A stretch of DNA of 44,882 nt, taken from a virus. Lineage: Duplodnaviria; Heunggongvirae; Uroviricota; Caudoviricetes. Position 1 is the stretch's first letter, and each line of letters begins with the position of its first letter. The DNA lies in IMG/VR virus record IMGVR_UViG_2872678658_000005, positions 1-44,882 of that record; one strand, 5' to 3'. Position numbers and translations under genes: made by a program. The notes below the pieces were generated by a model. That model saw only the letters and a program-made list of their open reading frames with translations, did not search any database and was not told the origin of the DNA. Positions 9,905 to 11,048 of this stretch are shown piece after piece.

Positions 9905-10395
9905 TTATGAGTCTTTTGAATGAAGTTCAGAAATTCATTGAAGCCCATCCGGGGTGTACTTCTGGAGACATTGCGGATGCTTTTGCTGGTTACTCACGGC
10001 AGCGCGTTCTGCAGTCAGCAAGCAAGTTACGTCAGAGTGGGCGTGTGGCTCACCGTTGTGAAGGAGATACACGCAGACATTTCCCGCGCCTGACTGAGAG
10101 AGCGCAGGAGCCGGAACCACAATCTGTTCGTGAAACCAGACCTGTGCGCAATTTCTATGTCGGCACTAACGACCCCCGGGTGATTTTGTGCCTGACCCGC
10201 CTGGCTGAAGAACTGGAGTCCAGGGGCTTATTCCGTCGAGCTGCAACGGTGTGGATGGAGGCATTCCGTGAAAGCCACTCCCAGCCAGAACGAAACAATT
10301 TTCTGGCGCATCGTGAGCGGTGCTTACGGAAAAGCAGCAAGCGCGCTGCATCGGGTGAAGAGTGGTATCTGTCAGGGAATTACGTGGGGGCTTAA
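9901..10395 (+). CDS. protein with C-terminal PerC-like domain (164 aa)
   Basis: Motif LAEELESRGLFRRAATVWMEAF resembles the PerC/Pch hallmark (GLWRRAA..W); N-terminal region looks like a winged helix. Confidence 0.55.
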   Translation: MIMSLLNEVQKFIEAHPGCTSGDIADAFAGYSRQRVLQSASKLRQSGRVAHRCEGDTRRHFPRLTERAQEPEPQSVRETRPVRNFYVGTNDPRVILCLTRLAEELESRGLFRRAATVWMEAFRESHSQPERNNFLAHRERCLRKSSKRAASGEEWYLSGNYVGA

Positions 10396-11048
10396 TGAGT
10401 AATAAATATTGCCAGGCGCTGGTGGAGCTGCGGAACAAACCAGCCCATGAACTGAAGGAAGTGGGCGATCAGTGGCGCACGCCGGACAACATTTTCTGGG
10501 GAATTAACACCCTGTTTGGCCCGTTTGTTCTGGATCTGTTTACTGATGGTGATAACGCCAAATGTGCCGCTTATTACACTGCGGAAGACAACGCGCTGGC
10601 GCATGACTGGTCAGAACGTCTTGCGGAGCTTAAAGGTGCTGCCTTTGGTAATCCCCCGTACAGCCGCGCGAGTCAGCATGAGGGGCAATACATCACCGGC
10701 ATGCGTTACATCATGAAACATGCCAGTGCTATGCGTGATAAAGGCGGGCGCTATGTTTTCCTGATCAAAGCTGCCACCAGCGAAGTTTGGTGGCCGGAAG
10801 ATGCAGACCATATTGCTTTTATTCGCGGGCGTATTGGTTTTGAACTGCCAGCCTGGTTTATCCCGAAGGACGAGAAGCAGGTGCCGACAGGCGCTTTCTT
10901 CGCTGGTGCTATTGCTGTTTTCGACAAGACCTGGAAGGGACCGGCAATCAGCTACATCGGGCGCGATGAACTTGAGGCATGTGGTGAGGCCTTTCTGGCG
11001 CAGGTTCGCCAGCAGGCGGAAAAACTGGTCAGGGAGATGGCGGCATGA
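10395..11048 (+). CDS. phage Dam-like N6-adenine DNA methyltransferase (217 aa)
   Basis: Start at MSNKYCQ (TAATG overlap, GGGGG RBS); catalytic NPPY motif (AFGNPPYS). Confidence 0.8.
   Translation: MSNKYCQALVELRNKPAHELKEVGDQWRTPDNIFWGINTLFGPFVLDLFTDGDNAKCAAYYTAEDNALAHDWSERLAELKGAAFGNPPYSRASQHEGQYITGMRYIMKHASAMRDKGGRYVFLIKAATSEVWWPEDADHIAFIRGRIGFELPAWFIPKDEKQVPTGAFFAGAIAVFDKTWKGPAISYIGRDELEACGEAFLAQVRQQAEKLVREMAA

Follow-up and report, generated by a model that had tools for sequence, protein, structure and literature searches.

A predicted orphan N6-adenine methyltransferase in the early-right operon of a lambda-like Escherichia coli prophage

A methyltransferase gene within a chain of overlapping early genes

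We analysed a 44,882-nucleotide stretch of tailed-phage DNA (IMG/VR record IMGVR_UViG_2872678658_000005; the whole stretch is called the window hereafter) and studied one gene in it, which an initial annotation had described as a Dam-like methyltransferase with an NPPY motif, located in the replication/nin region, translationally coupled to the upstream gene and one of two methyltransferases in the prophage. The motif was found in the product of a single open reading frame (ORF), as described (Table 1). However, (D/N/S)PP(Y/F/W) had eight matches in the six-frame translation of the window, and a second NPPY was present near nucleotide 44481; therefore, the tetrapeptide by itself is not significant, and the significance is carried by the profile matches given below.

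The stop codon of the upstream ORF (TAA, 10393–10395) and the start codon of the methyltransferase gene (ATG, 10395–10397) share one A, forming the TAATG that had been noted earlier. In addition, the ATG of the downstream ORF overlaps the TGA of the gene to form ATGA, an overlap that was absent from the initial annotation. These stop/start overlaps suggest that the gene may be translationally coupled to its neighbours; that is, the overlap was observed as claimed, and the coupling is a prediction drawn from it. The run of five G residues shortly before the ATG could be a ribosome-binding site.

The gene order was an XRE repressor (6126–6818, minus strand), a Cro-like helix-turn-helix protein, YmfL, Rha, a small ORF, an HTH_36/DnaD_N protein, a PerC-like protein, the methyltransferase, a protein made up solely of a LexA DNA-binding domain (LexA-N), RusA, KilA-N, DUF968 and antiterminator Q. 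The methyltransferase gene therefore stands between a replication-type gene and RusA, KilA-N, DUF968 and Q, in agreement with its earlier placement in the replication/nin region. It is one link in a series of eight consecutive genes (6916–11757), each of which overlaps the next by 1–8 nucleotides, and beyond 11757 the run goes on with short gaps up to Q at 13954. We scanned positions 5500–16500 for promoters and terminators; promoter-like sites were no more common than in shuffled sequences, and nothing convincing was found on the plus strand around the gene. Therefore, a private promoter for the methyltransferase gene, which had been considered, was dropped.

Table 1. Positions in the window of the methyltransferase gene, its sequence elements and related genes
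Feature	Position	Strand	Basis
HTH_36/DnaD_N replication-type gene	9086–9904		Pfam
Upstream neighbour, PerC-family regulator-like ORF, 164 aa	9901–10395	+	PF06069 PerC, E=1.2e-8; phrog_1324, transcriptional activator
G5 run, possible Shine-Dalgarno element	10386–10390	+	Sequence, 4 nt before ATG
TAATG, upstream stop / methyltransferase start	10393–10397	+	Sequence
Predicted orphan phage N6-adenine DNA methyltransferase (PF05869 / TIGR01712)	10395–11048	+	ORF, ATG start, 217 aa, TGA stop
WxTP motif, W27-R28-T29-P30, N-terminal	10473–10484	+	W27, T29, P30 invariant or nearly invariant in alignments
FVLDLFT, residues 44–50, first beta strand with L46-D47	10524–10544	+	Alignment; strand 44–50 in AlphaFold model
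NPPY, residues 86–89, catalytic motif IV of amino-methyltransferases	10650–10661	+	Sequence, alignments
ATGA, LexA-N start / methyltransferase stop	11045–11048	+	Sequence
Downstream neighbour, LexA DNA-binding domain only, 108 aa	11045–11371	+	PF01726, E=2.9e-19, positions 1–65
Beta-class N6_N4_Mtase, 350 aa, N-terminal DPPY	15110–16162	+	PF01555, E=3.7e-42

Family membership and conserved residues

The Pfam scan assigned the protein to PF05869, 'DNA N-6-adenine-methyltransferase (Dam)', with 156 bits against a cut-off of 28.1 (E=9.7e-46; profile positions 3–167 of 169). In NCBIfam, it matched the equivalog TIGR01712, 'phage N-6-adenine-methyltransferase', with 255.6 bits against a cut-off of 97.05 (E=1.5e-76; positions 1–165 of 165), and in PHROG it matched phrog_111, DNA methyltransferase. 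The RefSeq entry for the identical protein, WP_000066917.1, which is present in UTI89 and strain ampC_0069, is likewise named 'phage N-6-adenine-methyltransferase'. PF05869 was the only family returned by the Pfam scan at E<=0.01; PF02086 (MethyltransfD12) was unmatched, as were PF01555 and the MT-A70 profiles, and the motif is NPPY, not DPPW. A phmmer search of the PDB sequences, E. coli and T4 Dam included, gave chance matches only (E about 1). Judged from its sequence, the protein lies outside the E. coli/T4 Dam family. The term 'Dam-like' holds by predicted function and by family name (PF05869 'Dam') but not as membership of the E. coli Dam family, given the lack of a PF02086 match, and would best be read as a functional and nomenclatural label.

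The protein was aligned with four references, namely VT2-Sakai orf32, T1 ST20, HP1 orf13 and the dam product of Staphylococcus phage 80, to which it was 28%, 24%, 27% and 42% identical, respectively. All five proteins share W27, T29, P30, L46, D47, N54, L68, W72, N86-P87-P88-Y89, A110, L123, R146 and F149. NPPY was invariant against the four references and nearly invariant over 45 diverse homologs, and the same was true of W27, T29 and P30. The WxTP element may be motif X-like, and the FVLDLFT strand is probably the equivalent of motif I, which binds S-adenosylmethionine (AdoMet). Compared with the four references, the window protein has an 11-residue insertion just after NPPY and a 5-residue insertion before it; its hairpin between strands 139–148 and 168–176 also differs and lacks their GNxK signature.

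The protein matched the PADLOC model MTase_II PDLC03263 over its full length (524 bits), and since the best PADLOC models are labelled 'Type II methyltransferase', we asked whether it could supply the modification activity of a restriction-modification system or of some other kind of defence. This is almost certainly not the case: the Pfam-identified neighbours (PerC, LexA_DNA_bind, RusA, KilA-N, DUF968 and Q) include no adjacent nuclease partner, the PerC-like and DUF968 proteins had no PADLOC match, that of LexA-N was marginal (E=3.6e-4), and the weaker PADLOC matches of the methyltransferase were to 'orphan methyltransferase' models.

Predicted structure

A first AlphaFold run from 23 close homologs (76–88% identical) gave a predicted local distance difference test (pLDDT) score of 42 and was discarded. 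The final model was built from an alignment of 45 sequences, the most distant of them 33% identical, and showed a pLDDT of 95.4 and a predicted TM-score (pTM) of 0.91, with one alpha/beta domain followed by a long C-terminal helix (190–216) and with a beta strand (82–85) directly preceding NPPY. No close solved structure of PF05869 was found, the PDB holding no sequence match. In structural comparison, the model scored 10.5 against PCIF1/CAPAM, 9.8 against E. coli Dam, 9.6 against MmeI, 9.0 against T4 Dam, 8.9 against M.TaqI, 8.6 against M.BseCI and 8.4 against DpnM; Foldseek concurred, with PCIF1 at E=3e-4. The predicted fold is that of a class I (Rossmann-like) amino-methyltransferase, which fits the proposed chemistry.

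The model superposed over 138–157 residues on M.TaqI, MmeI and HsdM, whereas only 106–110 residues were superposed on the Dam enzymes (8% identity there). These longer superpositions, together with the motif order WxTP, LD (strand 1) and NPPY, which is uninterrupted by a recognition domain, suggest a minimal gamma-like arrangement. The profile scores far above their cut-offs, the shared motifs and a model resembling N6-adenine methyltransferases thus bear out the view of the protein as a phage Dam-type methyltransferase.

Comparison with known methyltransferases

The Dam enzymes of phage T1 (ST20) and Haemophilus phage HP1/HP2 (orf13) match PF05869 at 237 and 251 bits, are orphans and carry the same invariant residues; the T1 and HP1 enzymes are GATC-specific. 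T1 is a virulent phage whose Dam is extended by 33 residues at the N-terminus and contains a different insertion, and HP1 belongs to the P2-like phages. M.EcoVT2Dam of Stx2 phage VT2-Sakai (orf32; also in 933W-type phages) is likewise an orphan PF05869 protein with NPPY, WxTP and LD, and its gene, situated between ninB and ninE, also occupies the nin region of a lambdoid phage. We took VT2-Sakai orf32 to be M.EcoVT2Dam because it was the sole methyltransferase annotated in the 30 kilobases retrieved. M.EcoVT2Dam and the window protein are 31% identical over 144 residues; M.EcoVT2Dam is shorter (175 versus 217 residues), has neither the insertions around NPPY nor the long C-terminal helix, and differs in the sequence of the beta-hairpin. 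Its reported target is GATC (PMC6602927, which cites Radlinska & Bujnicki 2001).

PamA/Dam of Staphylococcus phages (phage 80 and the mosaic phi11) also belongs to PF05869, carries NPPY and is encoded in the replication module of a temperate phage. The identity of phage 80 Dam over the aligned core was the highest among the characterised set. PamA of the mosaic phi11 prophage has an NPPY active site, makes DNA DpnI-sensitive, which shows methylation of GATC, and is inactive as P65T (PMC12435837); counted on the phage 80 protein, P65 is the first proline of NPPY. In contrast, PamA has 141 residues and lacks the C-terminal third present in the window protein. Its gene is also expressed in the lysogen, where it changes the activity of host virulence genes, a role that nothing suggests for the window protein.

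Enzymes of other classes were more distant. E. coli Dam, T4 Dam and DpnM (alpha-class, PF02086) showed 8–12% identity over the structural alignment and have DPPY and an inserted target-recognition domain, whereas the window protein has NPPY and a single compact domain with a C-terminal helix. The gamma-class motif order of M.TaqI appears to resemble the WxTP, LD and NPPY of the window protein. M.EcoGI and M.EcoGII (beta-class, non-specific adenine) are likewise orphans borne on E. coli prophages and are silent in lysogens (PMC5778455); they differ from the window protein in matching PF01555, in having an N-terminal DPPY, a C-terminal FxGxG and about 350 residues, and in their late-operon site after Q.

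Both PF05869 members for which published evidence was retrieved, one from a Gram-negative and one from a Gram-positive host, methylate GATC; therefore, GATC is our best guess for the target, by analogy with relatives at 24–42% identity. We also considered that the protein may be an active DNA adenine methyltransferase of a divergent subfamily with a non-GATC or relaxed target. The same modest identity, the subfamily insertions next to NPPY, the different beta6-beta7 hairpin and a Pfam score of 156 bits against 218–251 for the VT2, T1 and HP1 enzymes are consistent with this, but both published members point to GATC and a UTI89 lysogen showed no extra N6-methyladenine (m6A) motif, though the gene may be silent there; we regard such a target as unlikely. 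GATC occurred 147 times in the window against 174 expected from base composition, a count that bears on no reading.

Proposed function in the phage cycle

We consider it likely that, taken as a whole, the gene encodes an orphan GATC-type phage N6-adenine methyltransferase of the early-right operon, which is made after induction and methylates replicating phage DNA. The protein is predicted to be a small, single-domain, AdoMet-dependent enzyme, and its gene lies inside the early-right (replication/nin) operon. The gene is most likely silent in the lysogen and would be made after induction or infection from the early-right promoter; expression is probably confined to the time after induction because the gene sits in a chain of overlapping early-right genes and no promoter of its own was detected. 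Its substrate would then be phage DNA undergoing replication, and the most probable site is GATC, by analogy with the characterised members of the family. A likely benefit would be complete methylation of packaged genomes when host Dam cannot keep pace, and another would be their protection from GATC-targeting restriction and MutH-type processing in the current or next host.

UTI89 holds a 100% identical copy of the gene, and its single-molecule real-time (SMRT) methylome shows GATC, CCWGG and the Type I motif CCA(N7)CTTC only (PMC8287963). Constitutive expression of an enzyme with a new m6A motif is thereby excluded, and the result fits an enzyme that is silent and/or GATC-specific. Silence in the lysogen is common among the prophage methyltransferases of E. 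coli (PMC4659465, PMC5778455).

Several points weigh against the proposed function. Our literature search found no experiment on the window protein or on a relative more than 50% identical, and the methylome papers on O145, ST131, O111 and UTI89 contained no assay of it. The characterised GATC enzymes are only 24–42% identical, and the insertions flanking NPPY and the different hairpin could be DNA contacts. The UTI89 methylome cannot tell 'silent' from 'GATC-specific'. Finally, a prophage MT-A70 'GATC adenine methyltransferase' proved to methylate 16S rRNA with a partner encoded just upstream (PMC10810198), indicating that substrate calls made from annotation can be wrong for phage methyltransferases.

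By analogy with this MT-A70/PNB-2 16S rRNA methyltransferase of Stx phage phiPA8, the window protein might act on RNA or another non-DNA substrate, possibly together with its winged-helix-type coupled neighbours, and the PCIF1 resemblance, weak as it is, points the same way. However, the families differ: the MT-A70 prophage enzymes (M.EcoGV / M.EcoPA8orf6770P) have DPPW, an MT-A70 profile and an obligate upstream-encoded partner (PMC10810198), none of which applies to the window protein with its NPPY and PF05869 match. The relatives of the window protein act on DNA when expressed alone, the PCIF1 match was weak (12% identity) with DNA methyltransferases close behind, and the homologs of phage Eeyore, Chi-like phages and Cronobacter prophages are flanked differently. 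An RNA substrate is thus very improbable, and an obligate neighbour-encoded partner was rejected as the principal explanation because the neighbours vary among distant homologs. There is also a rather small chance that the enterobacterial 217-residue subfamily has a non-GATC specificity or, in concert with PerC-like or LexA-N partners, acts on a particular target. If so, the enzyme would be a regulator of lysis-lysogeny or SOS circuitry, not a bulk anti-restriction methylase.

Distribution and integrity of the gene

Of 5426 complete E. coli genomes, 2120 (about 40%) contained the gene at 95–100% nucleotide identity, nearly always on the chromosome; in 395 of these 2120 (about 19%), no place covered 80% of the gene. 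It was also carried by 42 phage records, including mEp460, cdtI, Stx2a and Stx2c phages, 1720a-02 and PhiR phages, and tblastn found relatives in 587 phage records from many hosts. A HMMER search run exhaustively over 1.84 billion cluster representatives returned 97 clusters at E<=1e-30, rising to 1533 at E<=1e-3. Homologs from Salmonella, Cronobacter, Atlantibacter and Buttiauxella were 76–88% identical and kept all motifs, with a variable C-terminal extension in some. We therefore regard this as a very common, already known and ordinary phage gene.

The incomplete copies, together with the frequent silence of prophage methyltransferases in lysogens (PMC4659465, PMC5778455), would be expected if the gene were a decaying or functionless passenger of a cryptic prophage. 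Nevertheless, the frame is intact with all family-invariant residues present, the gene occurs in plaque-forming or inducible phages (mEp460, cdtI, PhiR and Stx2 phages), the protein is well conserved across the genera named above, and the prophage around it seems entire, from the integrase to the tail fibres; a passenger gene is accordingly a slim prospect at best.

The surrounding prophage and its second methyltransferase

Over positions 1–24000, the window matched E. coli strains ampC_0069 and 3150 at 100% identity. Compared with the full 44.9-kilobase window, ampC_0069 is not collinear base for base and departs beyond 24 kilobases; UTI89 was 99% identical in the middle and differed at the ends. 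The ampC_0069 element is a lambda-like prophage at tRNA-Thr (thrW) beside proA and is complete from integrase to tail fibres. Past its tail-fibre genes (locus L133, 1–3400, corresponding to about 41500–44882 of the window) lie pinQ, ydfK, ynfT and a truncated ydfJ, which are Qin-type remnants. The element may be composite, or a product of recombination between prophages, with a Qin-type right side and a thrW/proA left end.

A second orphan methyltransferase, which has the PF01555 profile, the N-terminal DPPY and the C-terminal FxGxG of the beta class and is a relative of M.EcoGI and M.EcoGII, lies between antiterminator Q and the lysis genes (holin). No third one is annotated in near-identical prophages, so that the earlier count of two stands. 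Its product is 80% identical to the methyltransferase of phage 1720a-02, which carries the same methyltransferase pair in the same arrangement; according to PMC5778455, the 1720a-02 enzyme is very similar to M.EcoGII, a non-specific adenine methyltransferase. Thus, of the two enzymes of the prophage, the early one may be of GATC type and the late one a non-specific adenine methylase.

Fusions and variants of the operon slot

One additional G in the G5 run, just before the PerC-like stop, joins the PerC-like and Dam frames, and public databases contain PerC-Dam fusion proteins (P0011, P0121) of 380–382 residues with the junction ...VGGLMSNKY. Among IMG/VR contigs, one had the G6 variant and at least 120 had G5. 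A programmed frameshift or phase switch was rejected, as G6 is rare in IMG/VR, and the fusions are probably sporadic mutations or homopolymer sequencing errors.

In Cronobacter prophages, the PerC gene and the Dam homolog show the identical 1-nucleotide overlap, and a 660-residue gene with weak C5-methylase similarity is inserted between the Dam homolog and LexA-N; phage Eeyore has a Dam homolog without a PerC gene, and the neighbours in Chi-like phages are unrelated. In both Cronobacter (L008-L010, 3001–5843) and Eeyore (L006, 2492–5609), the Dam homolog has a C-terminal extension and is followed by the overlapping 660-residue protein, whose similarity is to C5-cytosine methylases. In other genomes, a C5-methylase domain is fused N-terminally to the Dam domain in proteins of 637–688 residues (P0126, P0128, P0133). 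These genes and fusions are multi-methyltransferase modules in one operon slot.

Several RefSeq or pharokka-annotated phage records (NC_009514.1 cdtI, NC_049941.1) name this methyltransferase 'phosphoadenosine phosphosulfate reductase'. The profile phrog_33262 has 495 positions, and its C-terminal part (283–492) is the Dam domain; real PAPS_reduct-Dam fusions are known (P0129, P0143). On the stand-alone 217-residue protein, the reductase label is an annotation error.

Neighbouring genes

The 108-residue LexA-N protein matched TIGR00498 over positions 1–91 of 203 only, below the cut-off, and has no S24 peptidase domain. As an uncleavable LexA-like binder made from the early operon, it might keep SOS boxes occupied while induction proceeds. 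The LexA-N gene keeps its linkage to RusA in Cronobacter prophages. The DUF968 protein (12576–13571, plus strand), just upstream of Q, carries a C-terminal HNH-like nuclease signature (PF16784, E=4e-6).
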